DNA of 54,968 bases, filler included, from Bipalium vagum (taxonomy: Eukaryota), in NCBI GenBank assembly GCA_037834085.1. It is 3 parts of 3 records of this genome, joined end to end, with 100 filler letters (N's around TTAATTAATTAA, not from the genome) between each part and the next. Parts side by side here need not be neighbours in the genome. Positions count along the whole stretch, not along the records: positions 1 to 21,304 come from JBBMKC010239205.1; 2 more parts are not named here. The stretch is one strand, 5' to 3'. Positions 4,001 to 44,587 of this stretch are shown here, piece after piece (the first letter of the stretch is position 1; the number at the start of each line of letters is the position of its first letter). The position numbers and the translations under genes are program-made. Below the pieces are notes generated by a model. The model was not told where the DNA came from, made no database searches, and saw nothing but the letters and a program-made list of their open reading frames with translations.

Positions 4001-7000
4001 ATGAACTCAAAAAACAGAGATTGGTATTAACTTTCTTTACAAAATCTTTCATGTCTTTAGATTCAAATGCTTTACCAAAACCTACATTTATTGTTTTTGA
4101 GTTTCCGAACTTCAGTATTCAATTATTCATAATTATCTTTTGCACCGAGCTTTCATCTTTTCTTACAATCGTGGTCAAAGAAATATATTTGCTGTATTTA
4201 TCTATAGTACCAAGGATATATTTTTTTCTTCCGGTAGTTTCTCTTAAAGGTCCACATTTATCTATATATATGTCTTCAAAAAGTTCTAACACCTCTTCTT
4301 TCTGAACCTCTTCCTTGGTTCTCGTTATGACAAATTTATATCTCTTACAAGCTCCACGCGTTTTAATTATCTCCTGAACTTTTTCCTTCAAATTTGGAAT
4401 TGAGTAATTTTCTTTCATATAATGGGCCACTTTTTAAGCTCCAGCATGTGCCAACATTGCGCACTTGTATCACATTTCAGCCTTGACAGCATATCTGCAT
4501 TTGAATGTGCGATCCCTTTCCTGTATTCTAATCTCGTGTCTAAAATACTGAGATAATTGATAGAGTTTGAAATTGTGAGGTAATTGGTTTCTTTGCTGTT
4601 AGCATGAAGGTTATTGCTTTGTGATCCGAACGTTATGTGAATCGTTTACCATAAAAATAATGGTTGAGATGGTTACAGAAGTAATACACAACCAACAGCT
4701 CTTTCTTTGTCACACAGTAGCCTTCTTCATCAGTGTTCATTGAATGCGAACCATATGCTACCACTCTTTCATGACCATTTGAATCTTTCTGTGACAAAAC
4801 TGCACCAATTGTGTCGAAACTCGCATCGGTATCAAGAATGAATTCTTTATTCATATCTGGAAAGCATAATATTGGACTGGATATTAGTGCCTCTTTTATT
4901 TCTTCAAAAGCTTTATTTACTCCTGGTGTCCAAATCAATTTCTTATTATTAATTCCGCATAATCGTTCCATAGCTTTTGCTTTCTTTGCACACCCTTTTA
5001 TGAATCATCTAGTATAGTCATTGGATATACTTAAAATGCTCCTCAGGTATTTTTTTACATATTTTGGTTGCCTAAATGTTCGGATAGCATCTATTTTTGA
5101 TTGGTCTGTTTGAACACCGTCTTTGTTTACAATATGGCCGAGGAATTTGACTTCCTCTTTTAATAATTGACATATCTCGGGATTAATTCTTAACCCAGCT
5201 TCTTTGAAGTTCATTAAAACCTGATTTAAGACATTTTAATGTCTTTCTAAACTGCTCGTAAAAATCAGAATATCATCTAGATATACCTCAGTTCCTTCGA
5301 TTTTACTGATGACCTTTGCCATTACTTCTTGAAACGTTCCTGGTGCCGCTGCAATGCCAAATGGCATTCTATTAAAACAATACTGTCTATCTCTAGTAGA
5401 AAAAGCAGTATTCTCTTGTGAATCTTTGTCCAATTCAACTTGATAATAAGCATTACCCAGGTCTATTGAGCTAAAATAACGTACGCCACATAACTCCTTT
5501 AACATTTCGTCAACGTTTGGCCTTGGAAATGCTTCTCTTTCGGCCACTGCATTAAGTCTTTAAGTCTTCTAAAGTCGAGACAAATCCTAATTTCTTTCTT
5601 CTCTTTTTTCCAAACGCATATCAATATGTTCCGCGGAGAAATACATTTTCTGATTATTATCATAAAGATTCTTTATCGTCTCTTTTATCTTTTCTTCTAA
5701 ATTCATTGGTTGTTTGAATGGTTTTAAATTAATTGGCTCACGGTTCGTTTTTATTGTATGTTTTGTCAGATGGGTACACCAATATCCCATTTATCGGGGA
5801 TGAACGCGTCTTCGTTTACCTCAATTATCTTTCGTAATTTACCATCTGCATTAACATTTAATAATTTCAATGCTCTTTTCAACCATTCTCCTTTCTGCAT
5901 TGCTCTACCAAATCTTCCTTCTACATTACACAGCGTATTGCTCAAATCTTACACCTCGTTGGTTTTACTTGATGCTTCAAAACATATCCGAATTTTTTAA
6001 GAAACTCCATACCACCTATCAATTCATGGGTGACACTTTCTACAACTATGAATTTCGAAATTGACCAACGCTGACCTCTACGTTTATTGACCATCTTGTC
6101 TCTAAATAACTTCTCAGTTTTTCACCATACTGTTGAATCTAAACACCTGTCAGTTTCTGGGCAATCTTCGTATTCATTACATTAATTCCTGTTCCGTATC
6201 CAATTGAATACCCAATTCAAAATCCTGCACCTTACTCTCACACATGGAAGTCCATGCCTTCTGTCATACGAAATAACTGTCTCTTCACTTTCTGCAATCG
6301 CATCCACTTGATTACAATCTTCAATCTCAAACTGCTTCTTTAAAAATCTGTTAACCTTCTCTGCCGTTCGCGTAATAGTGGAGCCTTGTCTTTTTGGTAC
6401 ACTGATGTATTCTCACATTCTTCTCTCATGCAATCTCCTTTCGATATCACATCAATATTCTCACTAACCGCATTAATTCTTTTATTTCCATTCATCCTCC
6501 GATTACGTTCGTAAAAGTTTCTGTTTCTTCTCTGACCTCTATTTAGATTTGTGCAGCACTCAGATCCAAAACATGTGTGAAGTCTCTTCACCGGACAGTT
6601 TGGCTTATATGTCCGACACGTTTTTTCACCTCCAACATTCTATTTGTCTTTTTGTTGGGTAAACGTTTGCCATTTTTGCAAAAAGTCTAGTAACACGTGA
6701 TGCTAGTTTGACTTGCTCTACGAAATCATATATCCTGCTTCTTGTCACAAACATAAAATAAAATTAATTCATCGTAAGTCACCATCTGCTTTCATAACCT
6801 TAAGCAAACGTTTAATTGAGTGAAACCCACCATACTTTGCCCATACGATGAAGATGCTTTGCAATGGTCTTATGTTAGACTTTGAGAATTTTGGTAAGTT
6901 CACGTACTGTTTGAGAGGGTTCAGATGCTAGTCATAGTCAAAAGCTAGTGGACGTACACCACGAGGTTTTTATCTTCTAGTCCAACCATACGTTCTCTAA

Positions 7001-8749: not shown

Positions 8750-9560
8750 TTAATTTAATATTTCACTATTTAATATATCACTGAGTAGGCAGATTTTTTT
8801 CATGTCCAAAAAAGAAGACCAATTTTGATTTATGGCATGGAGCTCTGTCTTGTTGAAATATATTCTCTGAATCATATATTTGGAGCAATCTCTCTTCAAT
8901 ACATCCTTGTAGGCATCAGAATTCATCCGATCCGACACCTTACCAGAACTCTGGGGCCATCTTCTTTAATTGCACCCCAAACCATGATACTATTACCTCC
9001 GAATTTCACCGTTTTCGTGGTATATTTTGGACTATACCTTGATCTTTGCGGTCTGCGGACGTATTGTCTTCTTCTAGAGAACCGTTCTATGCGACTTTCA
9101 TCAGAAAAAATCACCTCATTCCAAAAAGAAGGAAGCAGTTTGCTATAATCTTTGCACCACTTTAAACGATTTTCTATATGTCGCTCGTTTAAATATGGTT
9201 TTTTCGCTGCAATTCGTCCGGATAAGCCATACTTTCTCAGAATGCGTTTCACATTACTAAGTGAGTTAGTTTGGCTTGTTTTCAAATTGATAAAAAGATC
9301 AAGTGCTGTTTTCTAGGAATTTTTCTTTGACATCCGAATAAGTGATCTTTCTGATCTTTGTGTATTTATCGGTCTACGACCACTTTTACTTAAGTTTCTC
9401 AATTTTCCATGTTGTTGCAGCTTCCGTATCATATGATGAATAGCATTCCTTGAAATATTGAGTTCATTTGAAATTTTCCTCTGGGACAAACCCTCTTTCA
9501 ATTTCTTAATCACCAGTTTCCGAATATCATATTTAACAAAAGAATTTCTAAAATTAAAAA
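8750..9560 (-). mobile_element. Truncated, decayed Tc1-like transposase
   Basis: HTH (GLSQRKISNELNISR, KSGRRP), AAKKPYL, VIFSDES, TVKFGGNSIMVWGAI, MNSDAYKDVL and an FQQD-like motif; frameshifted, C-terminus missing. Confidence 0.88.
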
Positions 9561-10686
9561 AATATATTACTTAAGCATTAGCAAAATGTTGTACATATAA
9601 ATTTTATTTATCCTTAAAATAGTTTATATATTTAAATGACATCAAAATTTTAAAAACGCCTTAACATAACAAATCTATTTTAATAAATATAAAATGATTT
9701 TTTAATGAGTTTTAAAGCTAACATAAACATATTTTTAAATTAACATAGATCGTAAAAGTTTTAATATAATTGGTAATTCAAATTTTCAAATCCTTTAATT
9801 GAGCAATTCGAAAAAATAAAAATTGAAAATCTTATGAGAAGAGTTTTATAGGATTTAAAAATGTAATATTTATTTTTATCAATTTGTATTTTGCTTATAA
9901 TTTATTCCACATTTCTTATTAATTGATAATAATAATGATAGGATGCCATAATGTTATTAATATTTTATTTCTTGACAAGAGAAAAAAAAATTATTTCTTT
10001 ATCATTAAAAAAAATGTTTTTTGATAAATCACTGTTTTCAAATCATTATACACAAAAATAAATCTTTCATTTTGGGAGGCTTCACATATAAATTATCATT
10101 AGTAGACTTCAGCTTACATCCTTAAGTGGACTATCCAGGTCGATTAAAAAACCCATATATCCCAAGTTTAAAACACCCCGGTACAATCTTTAAAATTAAG
10201 ATGAGCATTTTATACTAACTTTGTGTACACTAATCGACAATTTCTTTTGCCTAACGATAATTTCTAATTCTTATAAATGGCAATGATCTCTAACTTCAAA
10301 TATGAAAATGGTTTTTGAATAATTCAGATCGGCCAAATCATACAAGGAGCCTATTAAATGACAAATTTAATAAAGGAAAATACTCTTCTGCCACTGAGAC
10401 ACAAAAATAAATATCTAATTCCAAAGCCTTAATTTAAGATATTTATAACTTTTCTTGTATACATGTTAAAATATTATCTATAATAGAGAACGTTTTGATT
10501 TCAGAGTAACCACTTTTAAAAGGAGGATATAGTGAACAAGTATCAAATATGATTCGAACAAAATTGTTGTAATACTTTAAAATATAGTATGAACTGATAT
10601 CCAAACACAAAATAGTTATTTTTATTAAATTAATTAATTGATTTTATTTGAACTTCAAATTCCAATGGGTTCTACAATATATATAT

Positions 10687-10956
10687 TTACAAATTAGAGT
10701 GAGACCAAGCATCCAAAGCATTAAAGCAATCTCCAGATTGTTTGGTATTTGCACTTACTAGCTCTTTCATCCAGTCTTGAAAATATTCTTTTCGCTTTTT
10801 AAATAATAAATATTGTCCAAGGACAACGTAGGCCTTATCATAACCCTCGTTTGTTAGTTTTTTCCCTAGAACGTCACCGATACCAGGAAGGTCTGTAACT
10901 GGTTTTTCACCCATGGGCTCAGAAATAAAATTTGTGTGTTTGACACTAGTTGACAT
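10687..10956 (-). CDS. BANF1: Barrier-to-autointegration factor (BAF), 89 aa, intact single coding exon
   Basis: MSTSVKHTNFISEPMGEKPVTDLPGIGDVLGKKL..GYDKAYVVLGQYLLFKK..FQDWMKE..ANTKQSGDCFNAL.AW matches the BAF family over full length. A tattttag acceptor lies directly before the ATG (probable 5' UTR intron). Confidence 0.97.
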   Translation of the reverse strand: MSTSVKHTNFISEPMGEKPVTDLPGIGDVLGKKLTNEGYDKAYVVLGQYLLFKKRKEYFQDWMKELVSANTKQSGDCFNALDAWSHSNL

Positions 10957-12109: not shown

Positions 12110-13335
12110 ATTAAGGCAATTTTTTTTAACCCAAAAATTTTTTTTTAATTTATTATTAAAAATTTTAATTTTTAGCGTACCTTAATACCTATTATGGCAA
12201 AATCTTTTTTAACTTAAAGAATTTTTTCAAACTTTATTATTTAAATTTTTAACCTTAAAGTACACAACAAAAGTTGTTTATTGTATTAAAATAGTCCGTT
12301 ATACGCGGCAATCACATAATGGCGTACATTATGAGGATCAAAATTCTGATCTTTGCGAACGATATGTTTAACAATAGAAAAGCTTCTCTCCACAGAGCAT
12401 GATGTTGGCTGACATGATTGAAGCAGAGCAAAAGTTGCAGATGTTACGTCATCTCTATTCCTCTTGATAATTGCACTAAGATCGTTGTTTGATAAGCGCT
12501 TTTCAATGTTTGCTGTTATATTACATGGATCATCCTGGAAAAAGAGTTTGGCTAGATCTTCTACAGCTTCGTGAATTTTATATTGAGTGCTCTTAGCTTT
12601 TACTATTAGTTTGCTTAAACTCTGGTATTTTTTTAGCTGAATAAGTTCTCCAGCCAAACTGCTGTTTGATACAGATTGCTTTGCGAGAGAAATAAGTATC
12701 CCTTTGTCTTCAAAACTTTCCACAATATGCCGAACAGTAGGCAAATATTGAGCATACCAGACATCTGCGTTTAGCCATGTACCACAAAGTTGTGTCAATA
12801 CTGACTGTGGCGACTGACCTATAGCAGCAAACTGCAAACGGTGACCTTTATTCTTAAAAGTTACCATTTTGACACAAGAAATAGCATCCTCAATTGCAGG
12901 AAAGTGCCAACGACGGCGCATTGCTCAGTTATACAGAAGGTGGCAGATACATGTTACATGAAACAGTTGGTTATACATGTTCTTTAATATAGATCCGGCA
13001 AGAATTATATATTTTTCTGCACCAGTTATTAAAAGAACAAAGTTCTGCCTGTGTGTGGCAAGAAGCCGTCAACGTACTGGCATACGCTTGCACTATTAAC
13101 GTTATTGGGTAAAGGAACGCAATCAAGTAAATATGTTGTCAAAGTAAGTAAGATATTGTCAAAAATGATTTAGTAGAACATGCTGCCTTCTTATTATTGT
13201 GCTTACCAGATTGACGATGGCTCTCTCCAAAATGACGCTTTTCATGTTTTACAATGGCGTCGCACAATTTGAGTACAGTTGATTTGTAGGAGTAGCAATA
13301 AATTCTGTCGGGTAATCAATAATGCTAGAGCCGAA
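12110..13335 (-). mobile_element. Internally deleted hAT transposase relic with CGGBP1-like N-terminal zinc finger
   Basis: N-terminal YPTEFIATPTNQL..KLCDAIVKHEKRHF.ESHRQSGKH (~13320-13190), FHVTCICHLL (~12960), dimerisation-type QPTSCSVERSFS in ORF 12286-12921; repeated TTTTAACC subterminal motifs at 12120-12260. Confidence 0.8.
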
Positions 13336-13516
13336 GGGTCGTTTCCCCAACATAAATTTTTCCCAACTTAAAAATTTTCTAAAAAAATTGGATGAATGGA
13401 ATTGTAAATCTTGTGAGAGATGGAGTATTATAGGAAATATAGATTTTACAACTTATGAAATTTTGGTTACTTTAGTAGTGGTTGAAGATTAATTTTTGTT
13501 TTTATTTTTAAAAAAT

Positions 13517-13955
13517 ATGACACAAAACTTATTAGGGTTTATATGTAAATATGGAATTAATTCAACATCAAATTTTGATTTAATAAATTTTGATGAGGAC
13601 TTAGAAATGCCCTTAAAAGTTTTTATGTGGGATGAAATCCATTGTGTTTATAAAAACACGAAAGATGAATTTAAAGAAAAAGATATTAAAAAGAAATTCC
13701 ATTAATTATTAATTATCAAAATACAAATCAAAAAGGAATTCATTGGGTTGGATATTATAAAATTTTTATTTTGATTCTTATGGTTTACCACCACTTGATG
13801 ATTTAGAAAATCATGTAAATGAGTACAACAAATTTGATTTTCAATCTGAAACAGATTTAGAGTATTGTGGATAATTAAGTTTATACGTTTTATATCAAAT
13901 ATATAATGAAAAAAAAATTGAGGAAATTTTAGAAGAGTTGGAATGTTATTTTTGA
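13517..13955 (+). pseudogene. Adenain-like cysteine protease of Polinton, copy 1
   Basis: STSNFDL..PLKVFMWDE; after a frameshift IINYQNTNQKGIHWVG (catalytic His), FDSYGLPPL, and Q......YCG (catalytic Cys); stops and frameshifts. Confidence 0.82.
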
Positions 13956-13981
13956 AAAGTTAAAATTAAAAATAAAAAAAT

Positions 13982-14640
13982 ATGGGTGATCAAGTATTTG
14001 GTAATATTGCTGAAAATGGAGAATATATTTATACCAAAGCTATAAATCATAATGATGATGACGAAGATGAAGAAATTGAAATAAAAAAAGAAGTAAATTT
14101 TATTAGAAATGTTACTGGAGATTCAATGAAAGGAATTTTAAATATGAATAATAATAAAATAATAAATATAGCTGATTCAATAAATGATAATGATGTTGTA
14201 CATTTTAAATTTATAAAAGAGATGAATTAACTGATAATATTTTAATAAAAAGAATGATCTTTCTCTTAAATATGAAGATGTTAATTTTTTTGAACATTTT
14301 GATATTAATTCAGATTTACCAAATACTCTTCAACCTATAATTAGTAAAAAATTTATGACAATAAATAATATTAAATTCGAATTAGCAAAAAAAAATAATG
14401 AAATTTCTATGAAACATTCAAATTCTGATAATTGGTTAAGTTTAACAGTTGGTTTTAAGTCTTTGTTGGAAGGAAAATATTATTCAGATATTTATAATGA
14501 TCGATAGAAAAAAGAATTTTATAATAAAGGCCTAGCTTTATATTTAGATTTCACAAAATTTATCAAATGATCTATGAAGTCATTATATATAAACAATATT
14601 TAAAAGAAATTGAATGAAGAACAATAAATAAAAAAAGAAG
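13982..14640 (+). pseudogene. Fiber-like ORF, copy 1
   Basis: GDSMKGILNMNNNKIINIADSINDNDVV resembles the GxLxMxxxKIxNLxDPxxxxDAV shaft repeat of phage tail fibres and Polinton fiber-like proteins; directly downstream of the protease. Confidence 0.55.
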
Positions 14641-14689
14641 GAGGTTATAAAATTTACAAACATTACATTAGATGGTTTTTTAGCTATTA

Positions 14690-16560
14690 AATTACATGAG
14701 TAATGAGCTGCTCCTCTATATCTTTCATTGAAGTGATCATGATCTTTAACTTTTGATTTATATTTTGCGGTTGTAAAACTTTTTTTACAGTATATACATT
14801 CTGTTGCATTATTAAAATTAACTTTATCCTTACTTTGTAATGCCAACTTCGTTGGATCTTCTTCACTCTTATACATTTTTATATTTGTTTTTAATAGTTC
14901 AATTAATTCTTTTTCCTTTTTATTTAACCATTTAAATCTTTTTTACAGTATTCTCCTGTAAATAAAATATTTTCATTCTCTTTAATTGTGGATATTTAGA
15001 TATTAATTTGCATCTTAATAAGGTACTTGATTAAAGAGATCCAACGAAGGTGGTATTACTGTGGAAGTGTCCAACAAAGTTGGCTTTACTTTGAAATCTT
15101 CTCTTTGAGAAGTCAACTTTGTTGAATCATCCTAACTATTTTGTTCTTTAACTAAAGGTAAAGCAGACTTCATCTGTTCTTCAATTTTTACATTATGAAA
15201 AGGTAAATTAACACTTTCAATATCTGCTATAATAAATGGTATTCTAATCATTTTTAATAATTAGTAAATTTTAAAATATTATTATTATATCCTCTAAATT
15301 TATTGAATTCAGTATTAGACATGTTTACCTTAGCTGGCTTATGATTTATAAATAATCTTTTATGATTTTCATGAGCTGCTAAAGTTGTTTGATAACTCTC
15401 ATCTACATCTCTTATAAAAATGTAACTCTTTATTTGGACGTAATTCATACCCCATTTCACCACGCATATGTATTTCAAAATTTTTAAATAAAATATAATG
15501 ATAATTGAGTGATTTACTTCGTTCATTATTGACTGAAAAGAAACCTTTATTATTCTTTGATACTTCCGAAGGAATTCGAACTTTGTTGGACTGGCCGAAG
15601 ATCTTGACGGCTTTGCCGGATACTAATAATAAGTCTATAGATTTTGTATTTAACTCCTCATTTAAATCTGAATAATATATTAAATCTGTTTTATAGTTTT
15701 CTCTTACATTCCCCTTACCCATTAATTCATATGCATTTATTTGTATGTTTATCTTTTTTTCAAATCGTTTTATATCATTAATTGAAACCCACTTATTTCC
15801 TGATGTAGACTCATCTAATGCTTTAAATAATACAGTATCATAAATATATCTATTTGGATCATTAGCACTTTTGTTTAAGGGATTTAAATGCACTAATACA
15901 CAATAATGAAAACATTTATTATGTGTTTTTATATTAACAAAACAATTACTTCTAGAAGGTAATTCTATAAAAGAACTCCCTTTTATTGAATTTATTTTTA
16001 CAACTTTAACTTTAATAGAATAATATTTGTCAATTATCCATCCTGATCCTTTTACTCTATCTATTTCTCTATCCAACAATTCTTGATAATTAGAAATACC
16101 ACTGATTATATCAACCTCTGTTATATGTCTATTTAGATTTATAATCTGATCAGATTCAATCTTTTTGTAACGAATTCATTATCTCTAGTATTATTTATCG
16201 TAACATAAACTATAAATTGATATTAATTTTTTTATCAAAAAAATTTATTTAACATGTTTTGTAAATAATTCATTATATTATCTGTATTATTTATTACATA
16301 TTATATTATACTAATATTTTGTGAAGAAATATCATGAATCGTTTTTCATCTATTTTAAATTGAGAAGCATTGTCATCTTCATTCACTAAAGTATCATCCC
16401 CTCGGCAAGCCAATTTCACTGGATCATTATATACTAATGGTTCTTGAACTGAATTTAGATGAAATAAATGTTTTTTGATTTTTTATGTTCACCTAATGCA
16501 TGTGATTTTTAAAAATCTTGATTACAAATTTCACATTTACATTCATTCATTTTATTCATT
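14690..16560 (-). pseudogene. N-terminal part of Polinton/adintovirus protein-primed family B DNA polymerase
   Basis: C2H2-like CEICNQDF..HALGEHKKSK.H near 16540; GSGW..GSSFIELP..NIKTHNKCFHYCVL.HLNP (ORF 15399-16079); PFIIADIES ~15230; CIYC..KVKDHDHFNERYRGAAHYSCNL (endonuclease VII-like motif, ORF 14583-14876). Truncated before the polymerase core. Confidence 0.87.
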
Positions 16561-17299
16561 ATATTTTTTATATTTCTCCCAGCGGAAGACAATTAATGAA
16601 AAATAATTATATTAAAAATGAAATCAATAATTAAAAAATTTCAAAAAATAAAATCATATAAATAATCATAATTCACAAGATAAGGAGTTAATTTCAAGTT
16701 TCTAAAAACTTCAAATCATTTGTAGTAGAGAAATATGAAAAGAAAATAAATACTAAAGAAAGTGGGATAACATCAAAAGAATTTAAGGAACTCACTTTAG
16801 AAGCAATTTTAAAATTAAATCTGAAAGAAGCTAATTCTACTCCACTCTCTTTTGAGGATTGCTTTTCAATCTATAAGTGTTTCCAATCGGTCAGTTTAGA
16901 ACAAATTATTATTGAATTAAAAAAGTAGTCAGGATTAGAAACGAAATTAAAAAATATTACTTTAGGATATAAAATACAAAATGGTAGTTATATTTAAATG
17001 TTTTACACATTTATTTTTAAAAAAATTATATCTTAATTAAAGAAGAGTTAAAATCTCAAAATATTATAATATGTAGATCAGTTTTTCATTTTACACTAAG
17101 TTTATATATAAATTTGCAAAGGAATATCCTAAAAAAGCACAATTATCGTTTTCATTACATTTCATAAAAAATAATTTTAGTGAAATAAAGAAAATTGTAG
17201 AAGAAGAAGAAACGTTTTGGAAGTTAGGATTATAATACTTTAGTGAATAAAATTAAAAAATTAAAACTTCTTTATCTTTTATTTATATTCTTTTTAAAG

Positions 17300-18040
17300 T
17301 TCATTTTTCAACTCTTTTTTAACTTCTTTATTAAGTTTTTCAATAACATTCCCCTCTTTTATCTTTTTAATATTTTCCATACATCAGTAATTAATATTTT
17401 TACTTGTTCAACTTCATCATTAGTTAAAATTTTATCTTCTAATGCTTTTAATTGAAATATATAAAGTTTATTAATTGATAATTCTATTGTTTCACAAATT
17501 TCTTTATATATCTTTTTTTTTCAAAGTAAGCCTTATACTTATTGTTTCTCCAATAAATAATTGTACAGCCCCAAAATTGATGTTGCAACTGGAATATAAA
17601 TTAATGAACTTGTTCCTAATGTTGTTATTCCTGTCACAAAGCAGTTTCAATTCCAATAATTCCTCGAATAAAAATACTTCCTAATTTTAAATTTGAATCT
17701 ATAGAAGTATATTTATATTTTAATTTTTTATAATGTTTTAAATCCTCTATAACTTGTTTCATCACAAGCTTCACGAGCTATAAGACCACTTTGCATCTTT
17801 TCCTTAAATCACCAATAGATAATTTCAATTGCATTAAAATCTTTTGAATTTGATTTTGTTAATTCAATTTGCCATTTTTTGAGATATTCAAGAAATGTTA
17901 TAAAATATTTGTTAAATTTATAATATTTTAATTGAAGATTGCTTTCAAATTCTTTCAAAATTTTTAGATCTTCTTTAGAATTATATTGTGTAATTTCTAT
18001 TTCAATTTTTTTTATTTTATTTTTTATTTTTTTTTCTTTT
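17300..18040 (-). pseudogene. Polinton-associated ORF remnant with hydrophobic Gly/Thr-rich segment
   Basis: Decayed frame reads GSIFIRGIIGIETAL.TGITTLGTSSLIYIPVATSILGLYNYLL (~17680-17550) between Lys-rich helical stretches; collinear with the other minus-strand viral genes. Confidence 0.4.
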
Positions 18041-18049
18041 TCATATTAT

Positions 18050-18375
18050 TTTAATTGACTTTTAATATTAAATAAAAGAGAATTATTTGTTCTAGTTACT
18101 ATTCTATTTATACTAATTTCATTTAATAAATCTTTTCTAATTTGTTTCATATATTTTTAATTTACAACATCATTATCATTTATTGAATCTGTCACATTTA
18201 TTATTTTATTATTATTCATATTTAAACTTCCTATCATAGTAACACCAGTAAAATTTAGAAATTTATTTTCTGATTCAGTTTGAATAAAAGTTATTTCTTT
18301 TTTTATTTTATTTTTTTAATTTTTATAATCATTATAAAAATAAGGAGTTTTAAAATATGTAAAATTATCGCTCAT
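18050..18375 (-). pseudogene. Fiber-like ORF, copy 2
   Basis: TGVTMIGSLNMNNNKIINVTDSINDNDVVN*KY, homologous to 14110-14210 in inverted orientation. Confidence 0.55.
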
Positions 18376-18479
18376 TTTTGTAGTTTTAAGTTTTCCAGAA
18401 GAACATATTTTAACTCCTTTAACATGTGATCAAAGCTCTCATGAAGCGAGCGTTTGGCTCTAGAACCTTCGGTGCGTTT

Positions 18480-18865
18480 TATTTCATTATCCTCAAACCT
18501 CTTTTTATTAAACAACTTATATAAAACATATAAAGTTAATTGTCCACAATATTGTATATGAATATTCGATTGACAGTCAATTTTATTATATTCTTTTACA
18601 TGTTTTTCTAAATCTTCAAGTGGTGGTAAACCATAGGAATCAAAATAGTGTTCATTATAATAACCAATCCAAGAATTCCTTTTTGATTTTGATTTTGATA
18701 ATTAATAATTAATGGAACTTCATATTTTATTCTTTTCTCTGTTACTTCATCTTTCATTAAAACTTTTAAGGACATTTCTAAGTCTTCAGCTATATCTATT
18801 AAATCAAAATTTGAAGTTGTATTAATAACATATTTACAAAGGAAATCAAGTAAATTTAAATTCAT
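18480..18865 (-). pseudogene. Adenain-like cysteine protease of Polinton, copy 2
   Basis: MNLNLLDFLCKYVINTTSNFDL..PLIINYQNQNQKG, then (frameshift) YFDSYGLPPLEDLE and QSNIHIQYCGQLTLYVLY; clearly homologous to copy 1. Confidence 0.82.
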
Positions 18866-18894
18866 TTTTAAAAATAAAATTTAGCTTTTTTTAA

Positions 18895-19330
18895 TAAGGG
18901 TTAAAATACAAACCACTCTCTTGCTTAATTATTTTAATTTTATTTTTACACATCTTTTGTAATAACTATTTTAATTCTTTTCTATCTGATTTACTTAATT
19001 TTTTATATTCTAAACTATTTAAAATTGAATTTCTTAACCCCTTTTCAAAATAAGGGTCATCATACAATCCCGCATCACATGTCACTTCTTTTGGTTTCTG
19101 ATTTTCAATTTCCATTTCTAACTTTGTTTTCTCTATATCAGTTTTTTGTGCTTCTTTTGCTTTTTGTACTGCAGTCGCAAATCCTTCTGCTAGACCACCT
19201 GCTGCACCTAATCCTGCAAATATTGCACCTTATATTGGTATTAATGGTAATACATCACCTTATTTTCATCTTCAATTTCATCTTAAATTTTAATTATTAT
19301 TTTTTTAGACAAATATTTTTCCTCATCATT
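18895..19330 (-). pseudogene. Polinton core/membrane-active protein-like ORF (GGFLPL-type)
   Basis: GDVLPLIPI*GAIFAGLGAAGGLAEGFATAVQKAKEAQK followed by two GLYxxPY motifs (DAGLYDDPY, ESGLYFNPY), immediately upstream of the protease. Confidence 0.65.
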
Positions 19331-20329
19331 TAATATTATCACTTTTGATTCACCAACATCAAATATTTTTTTATAATTTGTCTTCTGTAATTTTAGTCAT
19401 TTATTCATGAAACTTTTGATGCAATTTTTTTATCCTCTGGGTTACGTTAATTTATATATCATATGAAAGAGAGTTTAATTATCTTTTATTTGATATATAG
19501 ATTGTTGTAATCGGCTCGGTTGATCAAAAGTCGACAGTGATTGAATACCTTGAAGGTTTATACCCTTTTGAACTGGCACAGTGTATGTATTTCGAAGGTA
19601 TTGTAATATACTAACACCAATTTGAAACTTATATTTTTTCCTATATTGATTTGAATTAAAACATGTGCTTTGGTCATAAATTTCATATGCATATATTCAT
19701 ACTGATTTTGCAATGTGTCAATTTTTTCAATTCTCTAATGTTTATTATTGATTTTAACATATCATTCATCAATTTATTATTTATTTTTTATTTAAAAAAA
19801 TGTATAAAAATATGTATGTGAAGTTTTTAATAGAAGTATTTCAAAATATAATTAGTGCAACAATTTAAATAGAAACGTATACTTTTAAAATAGGACTAAT
19901 ATAAATACTAATGAAAGTATTAATAAAAGTATTAATGAAAGAAATAATAATGAGAAAATAAGAGAAAAATATCCGTCTATTTACAAAAAACAGGTGGTGA
20001 TTTACAAATAATATATTTTTAATTAATTTGCAACATGGAAATATCCAAGAGAATTACATTTAAAATCCTTAAACCCTTTTAATAAGACAAAATCTAGACA
20101 AAAACAAAAATAATAATGACATAAAGATAATAAATAATTAATAAGAAAAATTAGAAAACTGTTTTAGAAAAAATAATAAGATTAATAAAATTTAGATAGT
20201 TGCCAAGTAATAACACTATACAATAAATTTGTTTTACCACTACCAGGACCAATAATTAACATTCTAAATATTTGTGGTAAATTAGGATGATGATTAAATT
20301 TTGTAAAATTATCATAACATAATTTTTTC

Positions 20330-21120
20330 ATATTTTAAAAGATTTTTTTTTATTATTTCTTAATTATTATTAATTATTTTAAATTTTATTTCATTTATAT
20401 TTTTTGCTATAAAAGGAAAATAAATTGAAAAATTTGGTCAATCAAGAATTTTAAATCCTCTAGAAACAGTATTTGATGGAAAATCATAAATGATTTTACT
20501 ACGTGTAACAATAGACTGTCTCGATGTTTGTTGTTTCTCTGCTGAAAAATCCTCTTTCTAAAATATTACAATTTATTTAATAACAAAATTATACTTATAT
20601 TAGAAATATTACCTCGTTTTGAATAATAAATTTTTGCTTTATAAATTTTTTTCAGTTTCAAATCCTAAAAGAAAAGCTCTAGAGTTTTGTTTAGGCAATA
20701 CAATTTGACAATCTTTTTTTTTCATCACACAATTTGAAGAAAATGGATATGGCTTAATTTTTAAAATAATATTCTTAATCTTTTAATTCTTCTAATCCCT
20801 ATTCATATTTTTTAGTATTTTCAATTGATTTAGATATTTTTGTAATTTCATAGGAACCAGGAGATGATAATAATTCTTTTTCAACCAGTATACCTTTACT
20901 ATCTTTTAGCTATAATCTTATACTACTATTATTATTCTTATTGTTAATTTAAAAATAGTATTACAAGTTGAAGAATAAACTAAGCCTAATTCATAATTAA
21001 AATTTGAATCAAGATATGAAGGATTTTGTAAAAAAAATTTATTTCAGATTTTCATAAATATTGTTGGAAATTTTTTAATTAAATGTTAAGATATTTTTGT
21101 AGTGATTCTTCTGAATTCAT
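20330..21120 (-). pseudogene. Polinton minor capsid protein (penton) remnant
   Basis: FFLQNPSYLDSNFNYELGLVYSSTCNTIF, SPGSYEIT, NSRAFLLGF and IIYDFPSNTVSRGFKI correspond to penton motifs PIxLxxxYELGL..YNSIPNI, PxGSYEI, NSxxxLLGF and YxFxxxVPPGYKI. Confidence 0.75.
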
Positions 21121-21227
21121 TTTACATTTATTTATTTTTATAAATTAAATTTAGCTTTTACCTTACCATAATTTTTTCCTAATTGATCAAGAAAATATTT
21201 AGGCTTCTAGATATGCAATCCTTTTCA

Positions 21228-21304
21228 TTTTATTATTATTATTATTATTTTATTATTATTAGTTTATTATTATTATTATTATTATTATGATTATTTCTAT
21301 TATT
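21228..21304. repeat. Imperfect (ATT)n microsatellite abutting a gap
   Basis: Direct ATT tandem repeats. Confidence 0.9.
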
Positions 21305-21404
21305 NNNNNNNNNNNNNNNNNNNNNNNNNNNNNNNNNNNNNNNNNNNNTTAATTAATTAANNNNNNNNNNNNNNNNNNNNNNNNNNNNNNNNNNNNNNNN
21401 NNNN
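21305..21404. other. Assembly gap (100 nt) with TTAATTAATTAA linker
   Basis: N run with a central six-frame-stop linker. Confidence 0.97.
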
Positions 21405-21464
21405 TTCAGTATTAAACAATTCACACTTTTAATGTAAATTTTTAAAATTCTAAATAAAACCTGA

Positions 21465-21465
<1 letters not shown>

Positions 21466-21519
<54 letters not shown>
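21466..21519. repeat. (ATT)n microsatellite
   Basis: About 18 perfect ATT units. Confidence 0.95.
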
Positions 21520-22655
21520 GACTTTTACTAATTATGATAAACAGTGAAACCAAATCAATACTCAATAAAACCCCAATTGAGTACTTTTCCACCGGTCTTC
21601 AGTTTCGTTAATTTCAGTTACTTCTTAACGTATTATAATAAAACACTTTTTACGTTTACTCTAAGGAAAGCCTGTAAAAGCAGATTATTCGAGTTTGAGA
21701 AACGTCTTTCGTTAATATTATACTTTCATATTTTTCTGATACCCGATGTTCCTTGGTAGATCAAAGTAATTATTTTAATTTTTATGGCTGCTCATACAAT
21801 GGTTTTACTTTGATTTTCCGTCATTTCAGTTCAGCTAACCTTCTGCAGCTTACTGATTAAAACAAAAATCACATGGGGATAGAAATTCCCCTATAATATT
21901 TATGGGTTTAATCAGTGATGAATTATACATTACTGCTCCAGCTTGTAATAAATCTTTAATTTTATCAATTAAATTTTGTTTATGAGCTGGAAAATTTTAA
22001 GTGTACTAATTAATAGTTTTATGGAAATAATGATAAATTTTTCTCAATTACTCTCAAATTTGGAGTTTATATGACATTTGAGAGCAATTCCATTGAAATG
22101 ATATACTCAAGAAAATATTAGAAGGCAAATTAAATTTTGTAAATATATTTAATTCTGTTTTTAATATTTAAACAAATTCTCCATTTTTAATAAAAATATT
22201 CTTTCATTTAATAAATTATTATTATAATATATTAATACATATAAAGTTATAATTAAAATCATAATCATTTCTTCTTTTCTTCGTATTTCTTCATATCTTC
22301 ATTGAAGAAATATTCATTAATTTTTTGTTTTGTCAAATAAATTTTCCATTATTTCTTGGTTTTTTTACACCATTTTTTATTCTCCTACAAACGTTGTATT
22401 CTATTTCAAGCAATTCATATTTCTTTTCCAACATTAAAGAACCAATTATATTCTTTTATATTCCACTTTATATTTCAAAAGTATAAAAGAATCATATGAT
22501 AATTCCTACATGAATCTTACATACGAAGGGTTTCAGACGTCTTATTTTATTGACAGCAATCAAAACATTTCATCATTAAAACTAGGTCTAAGAAAATTTT
22601 ATTATTTATACACAATTTCTGCAATTTCCTTATTGTTTGTCTACACTGCAGAAGA

Positions 22656-22657
<2 letters not shown>

Positions 22658-22709
<52 letters not shown>

Positions 22710-22724
22710 GATTATTATTATTAT
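22658..22724. repeat. (ATT)n microsatellite
   Basis: Tandem ATT; source of the spurious poly-I and poly-N ORFs. Confidence 0.95.
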
Positions 22725-23699
22725 AAAAACAAAAGTATCTCGAAATTACCGAAACATTCACACATGACTTGAAGGCAGTTGAATTAAAACAAATAAATAC
22801 CACATTGAAAATTGATATCAAACTTTGGTGGATATTAAATAAAACTTTTCGTTGATGAAGACTTCTATTCCTTGTTTAAATTCATATAACATTAAAACAA
22901 AAACGATAATTTACGTTACAAAAATTGAAACACTTCAATGAAATCTAGTAAGTAATATTAAGATATCTCATATCGTTCCTGTTAAATTATTAAAGCCATT
23001 CACGTCCCAGGAGACGTCTTGAATTTTGAAACATTCACAAAAATTAATTTTCCAACCTTGACTTATTGATTTTCGATAAACAATGACGCTTGAGCAAGGG
23101 CCTCTTCACAAATGGCATTCTAGGGACCTCATTAAAATGCAATTAATTCATTATAATTTTTAGTCAGGTTTCATTGTTAATTAAGCCTATAACAGTTTCT
23201 TCAGACTTTGAATGAATACTTTGTGAAAATATACTTTACTGAATGGTGAAATGAAGAACATGTTTTTCTGAATGTCTCTTTATTTCATTAGCCTGGTGGC
23301 GAAGTCGATTAGGCAGAACAACATCGAGCCTGACTCTCATATTTCCTTTGTCAGTTTTAGGGATAGCTCCAAGTAAGAATCCACTCGGCTGTGATGTCGA
23401 AGATGAAATTTAGGTTAAATAATAAAATATGATAAAAAATGTGCTTTCTGTAAGTGAAAAAACTAAAACTAAATTCAACATCCTCGGTTCCAGAAATCGC
23501 AAACTTTTTATAGTATTAAAAGGCGTAATAGCAACGAAATCTCGCCATTTTCAAAGAATATGCACCACGTATTATTTTAATGAACTGCATCTGTTGTTTT
23601 ATTAATCTAATTTAATCATTTATCCACATTTGTGACTTATTTAAATATTAAGTAAATAATTATGAATATTAAAAATATTGCTATATGACCAAAATAGAA

Positions 23700-23790
23700 A
23701 AAATAACATTCATTAAACTATCGCACTTTCAAGGAGATGAAATAGTTGGAATTCATGAAGGTGGAATATGTTTCAGAGACATAACCCGAC
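23700..23790 (+). mobile_element. Tc1-like transposase N-terminal fragment
   Basis: KLSHFQGDEIVGIHEGGICFRDITRR resembles LSDFERGRIVGxxEAGxSxRxIARR. Confidence 0.5.
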
Positions 23791-24260
23791 GTGCGACTGA
23801 AGGCGGTTAATGGCCTCTGGGAACCCACCTTTTTTCTGTTATGATTGACTAAGTATATCCATTTTTCATCTGATTGAACAATACGTCTTCAAAAGCGATC
23901 AACTCAAGAAAGTTTTGCACGTATCAACTCTGTCCCTCGCTTGCTCTTCCCTTAGGGAGTGTGGGTCTTGTCTTGGTTTTTCGTGTATAAAATAGAGTTG
24001 ATATAAATTACACAAGAAAGTTGTTTGATGTACACCAATATTTTACAGCTACATCGCGTGAACTTGAAAAAGGATTGTCCTTCAATTAATCACCCACTAG
24101 CTCAATTAATCTCCGTTATTAAAGCGCTTGAGCCATTTAACATCAGTTCTCTGAGCAGCAATTTTTTCACCTTCAAACTCCCATATCTCCTTGCAAGCAT
24201 CCCTCGTGCTTACTTTATAGCAATATTTTATATAAAATCAATCATATATAATATTTTCAT
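23785..24260 (-). mobile_element. Decayed mariner transposase
   Basis: ACKEIWEFEGEKIAAQRTDVKWLKRFNNGD (HTH), PHSLREEQARDRVDTCK, RRIVQSDEKWIYLVNHNRKK. Confidence 0.8.
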
Positions 24261-24707
24261 TATTTGTTTTAAAATTCCTATTTTTCTCCAAATCAGTCGA
24301 CAATAGAAAGTAAACAGGATACATTTATTCTAGAATTCAATGAGCCCAGATTATTTTGAAAAACTTGGTAATTAAACCACGAAATTCTTTTCTGATCCAT
24401 TTCTTCCATTTCATAAAACATTTTGGTATCGACGTCTGAATTGGAGTGTCCCTATTATACCTAAATAACATATTATCATATCCCTATACGTTCTCGTGAT
24501 GCAAACTGATTCGTCTGAACTTTAATGGATTTAGAACTAATTAATATGGGAAATATGATTGAAGTTTTAAAAATAATAATTTTCTCTTTTTAATTATTTT
24601 TTTACTGGATTTACCATTTTGTTCTGTTCTTTTTCAGTTTCCTTAAACTTTTTTCATGAAAATATTTGCATAATCATTTCACTATTGTGATACTTCAAAT
24701 ATAATAA

Positions 24708-24768
<61 letters not shown>

Positions 24769-24790
24769 TATAATATAATAATAATAATAA
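24708..24790. repeat. (AAT)n microsatellite
   Basis: Tandem AAT. Confidence 0.95.
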
Positions 24791-25619
24791 AATAGTAAAT
24801 TTAATATTAAATAAATTATTTTAAAAGTACAAATATATATCCGAATTAATAATTAAAATTAAAAATTATTTTTAAAATATCTGCGGTTTCATGTCACGAG
24901 GAATTTATTAAAGGAAAAAGACAAGTATTTTTTATTATATTTTCCAGAGTATAATATCATTATAAAATGTGAATACTTATTCAAAATATCTCTGATATAC
25001 CCCAATTAAAGATATTAATTTATTGTTACATAAAATGTACAAAGTGACGAGAATAAATAAAAAACATGATAAATATAAAATAAGTTTTGGTGATATAGTC
25101 AATTTTTTGAACTTTTGGATTTTGGTTTCTATATCAAAAACATATTTAGAACTGTTGCTTTGGGATTTCTTCAAAACAATCTTACTCAAGGGAATCCAGA
25201 ATACTCAAGAATTAAATTAAAAATTTCAACTATTGAATATTCAAAGAAAAACCCCTCTCAGATGTGCACTGTTTCTTCTTTTCAAGGACGTTTATAACTT
25301 TGTATTGAATTAAATGGCACAAATGTTGAACATAATTAGATTTCAGTAAATAATATTTCATTAATGGTGGAATTTCGAGATTATCGCGTATAGTTTTTCT
25401 GTAATTACTTTTTGTTCCCATTGTTACTTTAAATATGTAATAATGTTCGGTTGTTCGGAAAGTTACTACGTTTTTTCGAGTTTAAGTTTTAAACATCATT
25501 TAAAGTATCAAAACAAGTTGTTAATAAAATTTTCAATATCGATTACATTAATCCATATGTCAAGTCTGACTAGTAGGTAAATTGTTTAAATATATAAAAA
25601 TAAATTTTTAAAGTGGAAA

Positions 25620-26160
25620 ATTTGAAATTAATGTTGAAAAGTTAAATTTTTGGCATATTTTACTGTTTCAGTTCCTAAAATACCACAAGAAAATTATTAG
25701 AGGCATATGCAAAACAGGCAATAACGTAATAGCAATGTCAAACGTGGTTTTCCAGATTTCGTTCGACCTTTAGCTTTGGTCGCTTTCTGGAAAACCACAC
25801 AAGACTGATGTGGATAAACTGAGTGCTGCAGTTAAAAGAGATTCATTCATCTCGGACAATTGGGAAGATGTTACATCTATCTAATTCCCCAGTTCATACC
25901 CATTTAAAGGTCTAGGTTATGTTGAAAAGCTTAATGTATTTCAGAAAATGATATTATTCAGTGCATTAACATATGAAATTTGTTATTTAAACCAAAGATC
26001 CAATCTTGAAAAGAACAGTAACGAGCGATGAAAAGTTGATTATTTACAGAAACCGCAGCCGCAAGAGATCATGAACCAGGAGAGATGAACGACCTTAACG
26101 CCAATAACATAAAATAACAAGTCTGATTCAATTATGAACACAACGTGATACATTGCATAA
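25620..26160 (+). mobile_element. Decayed mariner transposase
   Basis: HIxLFQF, QCQTWFSRFRS, HLKGLGYVEKL, KRTVTSDEKLIIYRNRSRKRS. Confidence 0.78.
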
Positions 26161-26299
26161 ATACAGCCATTACATTGGTTAAAACTGCTTAACTAACCGA
26201 ATTATCGCCCATCATCTCTCGATCAAAATCACGGGTGAACGGTGCACCAGCCTGGCTAAAATTGGTCATTCGGCCCAGCAAAAATGTCCGTTTTTTGCT

Positions 26300-26380
26300 A
26301 TGACTCTTATATAAGTCGACCTCATTTTCTTCATCAAATTTTATAAAAAAACCTTGACTTATATTCGAGTATCTACGGTA
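26300..26380 (-). mobile_element. pogo/Tigger-type terminal sequence (solo end)
   Basis: TACCGTAGATACTCGAATATAAGTC..GTCGACTTATAT, the TACCGTA..TATAAG/CTTATA end structure typical of pogo-like elements. Confidence 0.5.
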
Positions 26381-27649
26381 CATAAACGACGGTCTAATTT
26401 TTAATTTAATTATTTTGTAAAATTCTGAATGGTGGAAATTAATTTAATAATTTAATTAATAATAAATGTTTGGAAAAATTTGTTCAAAATTATTGAAATG
26501 CGTCATTTAAAAAATAAATTTATGATGTTCACAAGATTAAAAATATATATTATAATATATAATAATTCTATTTATTTTTCTTATCCAAACACGAATATTA
26601 TTACTAGACCAGTAATTAAACAATGTTGAAAGAAAATAGAAACTATGACTATTCATGACAAATTCTAAGTAGTTTTAATCCTTTTACTTCCGGCTATCGT
26701 CTTGGTATGGTCATTGAGTAATTACATGTTAGTTCCGAATGAAGCCGAGTAATTTTTTAGCTTCATATAAAGCAAAAAAAATTTAAATCTCTAATCGTAA
26801 AAGTTTTTTTTTTGTTTTTCTAATTCATTAAAAACATCTGAAAATTTTCACTGCTTAAAAAGAAAATCTTAGCATTATAAAATTAATACAAACTTTTCAA
26901 ATAATAATTGACAATTCTCTTCCAAAATCTGTCAAACCTTTGGAATAAAAATTATTTTTAATAAGAATTGTTTCTTGTTTAAAACTGTGATACAATCAGG
27001 AATTACAATTATTAATTTATAAAATGACTTCGTTTTAAATCATCTAATAATTGTTTTAATTATTTGATTACTTAATTAATTATATGTTTGAAAGCGTAAT
27101 ATTTTTCAGTTTCACAGAACATTTTCAAAGCGACCATCCTGACCAATGTCTTAATTAAAGGACCAAATATTGAAATATTTTCTTTGCAAATCACACAGAA
27201 ACCCTGTTTCAGGAGTGAGGGGTTAATTTTGAAAGAAAATCGAAATTCTTTTATTCAAAGGACAAAAATATGATTTTCAAATATATATTCATTTTTTCCC
27301 CTTTTGAACAAAGAATGAATTTCAAACGTTATTATTTTATGATAACTGAGTATGGAAAATGGAATGAATTAACACCCGTAAATATTGTTTATTTATATTT
27401 ATAATCAACTAAATTGATTCATTGGAATTGTTATCTGCGATACCAACAAAATCAGTCATATTTTGAACAATATATTTTTGAATAAATATTAAAATTGAAA
27501 TTAAATTAATTTAAAATATAATTTTTAGAAATCATTTTAAATACTCACAGGAATAATTACACTTCATGAAATAAAACAAAAAGTAAAAATAAGGTAAAAA
27601 TATAAAAAATTGTTTTGACAAACTCTGTACATAAGACTTTTTATTTTAA

Positions 27650-27693
<44 letters not shown>
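27650..27693. repeat. (ATT)n microsatellite
   Basis: Tandem ATT. Confidence 0.95.
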
Positions 27694-27696
<3 letters not shown>

Positions 27697-28199
27697 ATAT
27701 TATTTTACTCTTATTTGAGTCGTAAGATTAAAACACCTTTTATTTAAAGAAAATAAGAAAAATGCATTTAAAAATTTTTCAAACTAATCTTTATAAAAAA
27801 GATACTCAGTTAAATTCTTTTTATAGAATATTTATGAAAATCGAAATTTGGTTTAGATTTCCATATCCTGTCCCAAATTGGCCTTTCCTCTCTCAATATG
27901 TAAATTTCTTATAAATAAATGGAGGAGATTAATAGAAATGAGTGATGCGGTTGAAAAGTTCAGTTCAGAGGTCAACATTTCGAGTTCAAATGAATGTCAT
28001 CTGTCTTTTCAGAGCTCAGACTTAAAACATTAGGAATGTGTCAAGTATTTTAATGAATGGGAAAAACTTAATTGTTCTTCCGATGAATTGGATTATGTCT
28101 TATTAGTGTCAAGACATCTTTTTCGTCAACATCAAAGATTCATAATATTTATATTTTTCTTCAAAAATAAAAAAACATTAAAATACTGCTTGATCTTAC

Positions 28200-29010: not shown

Positions 29011-30617
29011 ATATCAAGTATTCCGGAAATGATGCTGACATATCGTTCGACTGACAAAATTTAATGCAAATCCGTTAATCTTTCAACACTGAGATTTTAA
29101 AATTTCCTCTTTGACTTGTTATGCGATTACTTAAACAAAGATATCTTTAAATAATAATCAGAAAGTTCTTATTTATACTTGTGAAGGTTATCGTTGAAGA
29201 CCCCAGACAAGACAACTCTCCTAACTGCTCAGAGCTCCTGCCTGTCTGCATAACCTTGTATCAAATTGGATTCTGTTATTTGGTCAACATTAGATATCAC
29301 CAGTACACATCAATACCCTCTATTGCTTAGTTCACAATGAAGATCGGTATTAACAACATCCTCTGGAATTATTTAGAAACAAATGACACTGACATCGCCC
29401 TGTCAGTATCGGTCAGTATTACAATTGACCATTGTAAACATTGGTCAGCACATCAACGATATTGTCAATAATATTTGTTGACACAAACAAAAACAAAATA
29501 TTGAAAAAAGATTCTTTTTTGTAAAAATTTACACTTTGTCACAATCAGAAAAAAGTTGAAATATTTTTATATTTTATATATATAAAATATATTAATAAAT
29601 AATTTTCTCCATATTTTCAATTAACGTTTTATGAATTTTCCACATTTTCCGATCGAAATTCACTGATATAATTTTTAAGGAATTATAAAAAAATATCATT
29701 TCAATTTTAATAATGTAAAAGGACTCTGAACATTAAAAACTCTCAATTGCTCTTGACATTTATTTCCAATAGATCGATGTCAATAAAAATTAAGATCGTA
29801 TTTTATTATAAAACAATTAATTTCCAATTTGGATTCGGTTCCATTTTCATATTCATTAATCTAAATTTTGGTTTTACTTGATTTTTATTAATAAAGCGTT
29901 TCCATCGCTTTCTCTAAAGGGATTATTTTTATTAATTTCTTTCCAAGAATTTTTTCCTCTTTTTATTTTATTAGAGCTTTTTAATAACGATTTTAAAATG
30001 GTGCCTGTCAATATTTAAACATATTTGAGCATATTTAAATGTTTAAAAAGTGCCAATATTTTTGTAAATAGATATCAAAAAAATCTTTGGTAATTTTTAA
30101 AATGGCAAGCCAAGTTGGAAATGTTTTTTCATTTCAAAATATTTTAAAAGGGGCACGTATATTAATTTATTGAATTCGTGAAAAAGTTTAAGTATTATTT
30201 TTTTTTAATGGGATTAACAAATCTGTTTAAAACTGAGGTGTGAAATTGTTGAAATTTCTACAAACATGGCCACCACTACCAGAGAATATTTTAGTCGAGT
30301 CTCTCAGATCGCAACTTACAAATTTCGACCCCTTCATGTTCATGGTAAACAAGTTCAATTGTATTTTTAGAAGATCTGATTACGTCGAGAAATTCATTAT
30401 AAAGCTTTGAAAAAAAAATGTGGAGAAAAAGAAATCGATATGTATGTGAAGAGTTAATGGTAGACAGATTAATGGAGTATGTCTGAAATTTTCGAAGTAG
30501 CAGCTATCGGTGCCTATGATTAAAACAAATATTTGTTATTGTTATCATCCAAAAAAAATAAAATATTAATAATATAAATACTTTTTAAAGGCATAAAATT
30601 CAATTCTATATTCTTAC

Positions 30618-30806
30618 TTCTCCGGGGTAAGTAAAATTGTTTATTGTATGATCCGATCCGCGGGAAGATTTCTTTCCAAATTTCAAAAGTATTCGATAAA
30701 CCTCATATTCATAAGACAGTGGTCCTCCTTTAATGATAACGGAGCCCTGTTCAACATTAAATTGAATATCTTTTCCAGTATTGAGTGCTTGAAGTTCTAG
30801 ATTTAC
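30618..30806 (-). CDS. Internal exon of carbonic anhydrase-related protein (CARP X/XI-like)
   Basis: ccaag|VNLELQALNTGKDIQF..SVIIKGGPLSYEYEVYRILLKFGKKSSRGSDHTINNFTYPGE|gtaag, 189 nt, phase 0; NTG, GGPL.Y.Y and GS.H..N...F.GE are alpha-CA/CARP motifs. Confidence 0.9.
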
Positions 30807-44577: not shown

Positions 44578-44587
44578 TGTCATTTTT

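Follow-up and report, generated by a model that had tools for sequence, protein, structure and literature searches.

What remains, and of which kind of element, where fragments of several viral genes lie side by side in an animal genome? The question is raised by a stretch of ~8 kb within a 54,968-nucleotide piece of the Bipalium vagum assembly GCA_037834085.1 (this whole piece is called the window in the following). A preliminary description, made from the sequence alone, had read positions 13337 to 21120 as the relic of a single integrated DNA virus of the Polinton/adintovirus type. The stretch contains broken genes for a penton, a packaging ATPase, a maturation protease, a fibre-like protein and the N-terminal half of a protein-primed DNA polymerase B (pPolB), which is truncated before Exo II; the protease and fibre-like genes are present in two inverted copies (Table 1). 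That these are the remains of a decayed, integrated Polinton/adintovirus-like element, as had been described, has the support of sequence comparisons, profiles and folds, and profile searches for the penton, the adenain-type protease and pPolB all returned matches. The assumption of a single element has fared less well, since two related ones fit the tile comparison and the dN/dS estimate given below better, and we consider it probable that the stretch derives from two related Polinton/Maverick (adintovirus-like) elements.

Penton, packaging ATPase and polymerase

The region is rich in stops and frameshifts, its longest open stretch counting 258 codons (15402-16175). The motifs from which a penton gene had originally been read are all there: YELGL (20981-20995), PGSYEI (20844-20861, in another frame) and NSRAFLLGF (20660-20686) each occur once in the window, on the minus strand within 20660-20995 and in two frames overall. 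A search with the penton frame returned one intact relative, a protein of 266 residues from Logan (P0156; E 3.1e-17), whose residues 36-240 are collinear with 21022-20381 in tblastn, 205 residues falling on 214 codons. Furthermore, a penton profile matches 20354-21053, and profiles built on open reading frames (ORFs) of 26 related IMG/VR loci that share the polymerase type also match the penton C-terminus. The structural model of P0156 (pLDDT, the score of the predicted local distance difference test, 74.5) matches the mavirus penton with an E-value of 3.1e-11, as well as adenovirus penton bases, and the atlas places P0156 among viral minor-capsid-like clusters. A single jelly-roll penton is thus among the family features found at the locus. 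Locus scans of metagenome contigs with P0156 yielded no confirmed relative.

The same alignment bears on whether the interruptions could be introns of an active Maverick, a reading that, together with the palindromic derivative discussed below, we hold to be extremely improbable. Because the penton aligns collinearly, there is no room for introns, and its breaks are stops and small indels; spliceosomal introns were rejected on the strength of the collinearity with P0156.

The preliminary description had counted the packaging ATPase among the genes deleted or lying across the 21305 gap, but its 5' third, including the Walker A motif, is preserved next to the penton. The match spans only profile positions 10-66 of 228 and the remainder of the gene beyond this 5' third was not detected, so that the A32/FtsK-like ATPase is represented by that third only. 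Here and below, the E-values of the searches with locus-ORF (ATPase/protease), pPolB/penton and fibre/capsid/integrase profiles are calculated for 1000 targets, not for a database, and those of a repeat search with protease and ATPase profiles (protease independent E-values, iE, of 5.7e-10 and 7.3e-10) for 100 targets. In the reversed window, which served as a control, the best iE was 0.018 with the locus-ORF profiles, and the pPolB/penton and fibre-motif profile searches gave no match; the ATPase, protease and fibre-motif matches all stand above these controls.

The pPolB N-terminus, which had also been noted before, was confirmed. It comprises a C2H2-like start, recognized by eye, a putative terminal-protein region, a vOTU domain with its Cys and His, Exo I and a zinc finger of the endonuclease VII type. 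With the frame of 14640-16175, stops being read as X, an exhaustive search of 1.84 billion representative sequences found 899 homologues at E<=1e-3 (best 1.6e-25); it overturned a word-based comparison of the pPolB ORF with longer proteins, in which none of 1170 candidates had been retained. Of 20 homologues scanned, taken from 150 listed, 15 carry Endonuclease_7 and four DNA_pol_B_2. A profile built from 36 of the hits matches the window at profile positions 150-540 of 1210 with an iE of 4.8e-50, and the reversed window not at all. The homology ends at position 540, just before Exo II, and the later motifs (Exo II/III, Pol A, B and C) are nowhere in the window; since pPolB stops there, the catalytic core is missing. 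Locus scans of viral contigs with the pPolB ORF gave no confirmed relative.

OTU proteases also top both fold searches with a predicted model of the window's own stop-free pPolB ORF (pLDDT 68.9), with a best E-value of 3.5e-3 in Foldseek and a Z of up to 7.4 in VIA-align (root-mean-square deviation 3.1, 100 residues aligned). An OTU domain is described for polinton pPolBs in PMC11161782, and a pPolB with an N-terminal vOTU is thus present at the locus, albeit in its N-terminal half only. Within the pPolB ORF, a 54-bp insert between two 6-bp direct repeats (15559-15624) keeps the frame and has a GC content of 52%, against a regional average of 22%; it has the look of a minute insertion of later date, flanked by a target-site duplication (TSD).

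In a FastTree phylogeny of 228 out of 260 sequences (32 were left out for covering less than 75% of 330 columns), the window pPolB groups with P0003 and P0005 from ENA (support 0.92) and then with P0072, a partial NCBI protein from a metagenome-assembled genome (MAG; 0.94), although its own branch is long (1.49). The four have DHDH and DIE motif variants in common, but the three relatives are ~33% identical to the window pPolB at best. The next clade includes the Macrostomum lignano protein P0027. Among the 20 pPolB relatives looked up, three bear names: Stylophora pistillata, Macrostomum lignano and one MAG-labelled partial protein. P0072 (NCBI MCG8431126.1, on a contig of 1782 bp) bears the label of a Candidatus Omnitrophica MAG and is probably a mis-binned eukaryotic viral fragment.

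An inverted pair of protease and fibre-like genes

The adenain-like protease and the fibre-like ORF of the preliminary description were both recovered, each of them twice. The Adenain/Ulp1-like maturation protease is recognized by two profile searches in either copy (Table 1); the locus-ORF profile matches lie at 13740-14000 and 18477-18704, copy B still shows the His-Trp, Phe-Asp-Ser and Cys-Gly motifs, and the protease of L012, one of the loci matched by copy A, hits Peptidase_C5 with an E-value of 2.6e-4. Profile family F3 is a mixture of protease and PLA2 ORFs, its member from L010 being a PLA2. The neighbouring ORF is putatively called fibre-like after F5/8-type or T7 tail-fibre domains in relatives; a fibre-like gene lies directly 3' of the protease in L006, L012 and L082, that is, in three of the five loci with both labels, one of the five (L010) being mislabelled.

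The protease and the start of the fibre-like gene are thus found at ~13517-14230 and, in the opposite orientation, at ~18136-18865. Plus-strand positions 13500-14220 mirror minus-strand positions 18140-18880 at 74-86% nucleotide identity. The mirror lacks an inward continuation: of ten tiles covering 13200-16199, only three resemble the right side distinctly more than shuffled sequences do. The two fibre-like genes have unrelated 3' halves, and the stretches upstream of the proteases are likewise unrelated. In 371 aligned positions, the copies differ at 57, which distribute over codon positions 3, 1 and 2 as 27, 19 and 11. Given the resulting dN/dS of 0.40 (121 codons; bootstrap pN/pS 0.29-0.75), the copies appear to have diverged partly under selection, before both broke. 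Because of this ratio and the unrelated flanks, we regard it as likely that two related elements abut here tail to tail. Moreover, pPolB is cut where the plus-strand piece ends, and therefore a deletion or nested insertion that joined two elements would fit.

Accordingly worded as a history, two related Polinton/Maverick elements would have integrated into the animal germ line, would likely have been joined tail to tail at ~14600 through a deletion or a nested insertion, and would both probably have been decaying since. Judging from their family, the parents would have replicated via protein priming, the vOTU domain cleaving off the terminal protein; an RVE integrase would have inserted them, and their DNA would have been packaged into double-jelly-roll capsids, with maturation by the protease.

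The same pair of copies could also have arisen within one Polinton-like element by an old inverted duplication of the protease-fibre cassette while the element was active, followed by decay and loss of the ends. We consider this unlikely, even though the copies are inverted about a common centre near 16185, a dN/dS below 1 is also expected of paralogues under selection, and the relatives L006 and L012 have two fibre-like genes: pPolB is cut mid-gene exactly at the end of the plus-strand piece, the sequences upstream of the two proteases are unrelated, and none of 35 related loci with at least three labelled gene types (from 107 non-duplicate loci) has two protease labels. It is quite unlikely, too, that the junction is an assembly artefact, in which a short-read scaffold wrongly connects two collapsed Maverick fragments. 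Repeats pose difficulties for assembly and there are gap spacers at 21305 and 37970, but the 14600 junction has no N run or microsatellite, and copies 74-86% alike are too different for easy collapse. Finally, the inverted arms might recall a palindromic snap-back derivative of a Maverick, the counterpart of the intron hypothesis above; yet the mirror ends at ~14230/18140, and its two arms differ considerably. A snap-back hairpin was rejected, as near-identical mirror halves do not extend across the whole element.

Several observations weigh against reading the locus as two fused Polintons. The segments underlying dN/dS are four blocks picked by eye in a two-sequence alignment, the codon-position test is by itself modest (p 0.018-0.034), and an internal duplication in one active element followed by selection would give the same signal. 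The Foldseek E-values of the OTU match are weak and its Z lies below 8, three ORF remnants are without identity, and no major capsid gene, Polinton integrase or terminal inverted repeat (TIR) was found in the window, including the part past the 21305 gap.

Missing genes and relatives

The genes that should complete a Polinton were sought throughout the window. A double jelly-roll capsid profile of 17 locus ORFs gave a best iE of 0.74, although heavy decay could hide a remnant, and neither DJR-like_dom nor a Polinton integrase was found in the 107 stop-free stretches drawn from 12213-14942 and 16309-28030. The RVE integrase profile matches only the long terminal repeat (LTR) retrotransposon relics at 3888-4247 and 41830-42392; the gene itself may have been part of deleted DNA or of the gap. 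It had been proposed that the missing genes might lie just across the 21305 gap, but 21405-28030 gives no capsid or integrase signal, the gap itself being unreadable. Long TIRs were likewise not found, as no inverted pair flanks the locus within the window and its sole long inverted match is the protease-fibre pair; with the element ends lost and the gap cutting off the right side, no TSD can be read. An AGTAGT word near 13476, which we take to resemble a Polinton end, was rejected, because by our estimate several are expected by chance at such base composition. Rfam returned no match in the window.

The locus would therefore be inert as it stands, because the catalytic polymerase core, capsid gene, integrase and ends were not found and no gene for copying, integration or the shell is whole. 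For the failure to find an integrase, a major capsid, a polymerase core and TIRs, we file it as a Polinton-derived fossil rather than as a complete member, and since no major capsid gene, Polinton integrase or TIR was found in the window and no TSD can be read, its mode of integration is taken from relatives only. It is on this point that an adenovirus-like or Polinton-like virus that had no integrase, and was taken up by accident in the course of DNA repair, has to be weighed. Such a virus would account for a window in which no integrase, TIR or TSD was recognized; animal viruses of this kind and of similar size are described in PMC8502044, and five of the 35 related loci show no integrase. 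We nevertheless judge it very unlikely, as the Hydra and Anelosimus examples are presented there as having no detectable OTU domain, whereas the window pPolB has one with its Cys and His, and as the other 30 of the 35 loci do have an RVE integrase, the remaining five being possibly cut.

Returning to two decayed Polintons, the locus shares with the animal Polintons/Mavericks (adintoviruses), as portrayed in PMC8502044, PMC8097293 and PMC4028283, the penton, the A32/FtsK-like ATPase, the adenain protease, the OTU-bearing pPolB and the fibre-like gene. It differs from them in its truncated pPolB and ATPase and its two inverted protease-fibre cassettes, and in that no major capsid gene, integrase, TIRs or TSD were recognized. 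Of the IMG/VR and metagenome loci with the same pPolB type, L004, L006, L012 and L082 are intact, with capsid and, except for L012, integrase genes, whereas the window locus is decayed; in the first three, the penton is ~26-30% identical to P0156. All four have the ATPase before the penton, while at our locus the penton lies upstream. L002, L015, L020, L021 and L023 combine the same polymerase type with different ATPase, protease, penton and capsid families (F4, F8, F9, F12), a sign of module swapping among relatives.

Sf-Maverick 1 and 2 from Spodoptera, apparently Alpha-PolB adintoviruses according to their account in PMC5803895, have in common with the locus a pPolB with a Recombination endonuclease VII domain, an A32-like ATPase and an adenovirus-like protease, a likeness of descriptions, not of directly compared sequences. 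Unlike in these elements, no PLA2 gene was detected at our locus, and the core by which Alpha and Beta types are told apart is missing. As to the Alpha-PolB class (pfam03175-type, with bidnavirus similarity), what can be set beside it is thus the DNA_pol_B_2 in some of the homologues scanned and the endonuclease VII domain in common with the Sf-Mavericks, which match the B. mori densovirus at 6e-58 (PMC5803895).

The locus is an ordinary genomic fossil and shows no new mechanism, because degraded Mavericks are the commonest state of such elements in animal genomes: 96% of vertebrate Maverick/Polinton copies are given as defective in PMC8097293, and PMC8502044 reports a degraded relic of an adintovirus from human chromosome 7. 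Its only unusual aspect is the small unnamed pPolB sub-clade, and its value is that of a marker for a pPolB/penton sub-lineage that is poorly sampled and has unnamed database proteins as its nearest relatives. It is conceivable, though less probable than not, that the locus documents an unnamed animal Polinton lineage, marked by the small clade that its pPolB forms with P0003, P0005 and P0072, by the divergent penton and by accessory genes matching nothing searched; this lineage might belong to freshwater flatworms, and two of its members, their fibre tips exchanged, would here have been fused at a single site. On the reading of two elements, one germ line would have been reached by at least two related members that share a fibre-like base but differ in their 3' halves. 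Should the host be a triclad, the locus would also add gene-level detail to the Maverick expansion reported there from repeat annotation, as for Dugesia (bioRxiv 10.64898/2025.12.11.693146). Polintons are further mentioned as piRNA targets in the planarian of PMC8532177, and Orthopolintovirales-related insertions in flatworms in bioRxiv 10.1101/2025.04.19.649669 (see also bioRxiv 10.1101/2023.08.22.554363).

Other remnants and genomic surroundings

Table 1. Features of the viral stretch and its borders, in window coordinates
Feature	Position	Strand	Basis
Penton (single jelly-roll minor capsid) pseudogene, element A; three frames, several stops	20340-21120	-	P0156 match; tblastn; profile; fold of relative
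A32/FtsK-like packaging ATPase, 5' third, Walker A at 20230-20250	20116-20340	-	Pox_A32 E 0.019; profile iE 3.5e-6
pPolB, N-terminal half	14640-16559	-	Endonuclease_7 E 2.7e-4; profile; motifs; OTU fold
Adenain-type maturation protease pseudogene, copy A, frameshifted	18477-18865	-	profile iE 2e-7 and 5.7e-10; tblastn to protease ORFs of L006, L012, L018, L082
Adenain-type protease pseudogene, copy B, three frames	13517-13955	+	profile iE 4.6e-8 and 7.3e-10
Fibre-like ORF remnant, copy A: N-terminal motif 18136-18273, then Lys/Glu-rich stretch	17812-18350	-	profile iE 8.9e-7
Fibre-like ORF remnant, copy B (element B): shared motif 14057-14224, 3' part unlike copy A	13982-14507	+	profile iE 6.1e-6
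ORF remnant, no homologue	19286-19770	-	open stretches; no hit in any search
Gly/Ala-rich 'GGFLPL-type' ORF remnant	18895-19262	-	pX-like core protein likeness by eye only
Hydrophobic ORF remnant	17320-17800	-	accessory family F22 likeness by eye, unconfirmed
ORF remnant divergent from pPolB	16590-17235	+	open stretches 16692-16925, 17077-17232; no Pfam hit
Flanking hAT-type (DUF659) transposase relic, non-viral	12286-13353	-	DUF659 E 0.0028 at 12928-13068, below Pfam cut-off; extent by eye
Gap spacer: two N runs with a 12-base linker between them, after a TTA microsatellite; right readable limit	21305-21404	.	sequence

Between the identified genes lie further ORF remnants. The preliminary description had named one of them after a GGFLPL motif: an ORF is indeed present, but it reads GDVLPL, followed by a Gly/Ala-rich run, and the literal GGFLPL is absent. 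Nor is its family likeness supported, since hhalign gave a probability of 0.3% against the pX-like GGFL family of relatives and the best atlas value was 0.89. The hydrophobic remnant recalls accessory family F22, which we take to be the one called GasderminX; against F22, it reached an hhalign probability of 0.8% and had no profile hit. Neither of these two ORFs has a supported match to accessory genes of the PLA2X or GasderminX/Cupiennin class. The names pX, Cupiennin and GasderminX are those used for accessory genes in Pfam (Adeno_PX) and in PMC8502044.

On the left, the border had been set slightly too far out: 13337 to ~13350 is, by eye, the start of the hAT-type relic, and viral homology begins at ~13500. 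The 5' end of this relic, which retains an open frame of 212 codons at 12286-12924, adjoins the left viral piece. The spacers at 21305-21404 and 37970-38069 are identical, each 100 bases long, with N runs that enclose a palindromic linker of 12 bases; they are an assembly artefact that appears as a repeat.

The window is AT-rich, mostly with 20-30% GC per kb, and contains TTA microsatellites. From these two traits and the Macrostomum protein in the neighbouring pPolB clade, a triclad flatworm may be guessed as the host, at roughly even odds. Two decayed LTR-retrotransposon relics with RVT_1, RT_RNaseH, zf-CCHC and integrase hits lie at 3530-6640 (minus strand) and ~39000-44600 (plus strand), the second with long 3' ORFs at 42675-44577, and Tc1/mariner transposase remnants at 8926-9570 (minus strand, with HTH_Tnp_Tc3_2) and 32565-33128 (with HTH_38). 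Among these transposon relics, an intact, intronless ORF for barrier-to-autointegration factor (10687-10956, minus strand; SAM_BAF E 1.6e-38) is either a host gene or a retrocopy; its exact sequence was not found in a collection of 15 billion sequences. A carbonic-anhydrase-related exon is located at ~30612-30806 on the minus strand (Carb_anhydrase E 1.4e-11), with splice signals seen by eye and carbonic anhydrase-related protein as its best solved relative. Lastly, a 270-bp inverted repeat pair of 84% identity (50178-50443 and 52794-53059), 2.3 kb apart, probably marks the ends of a non-autonomous DNA transposon.

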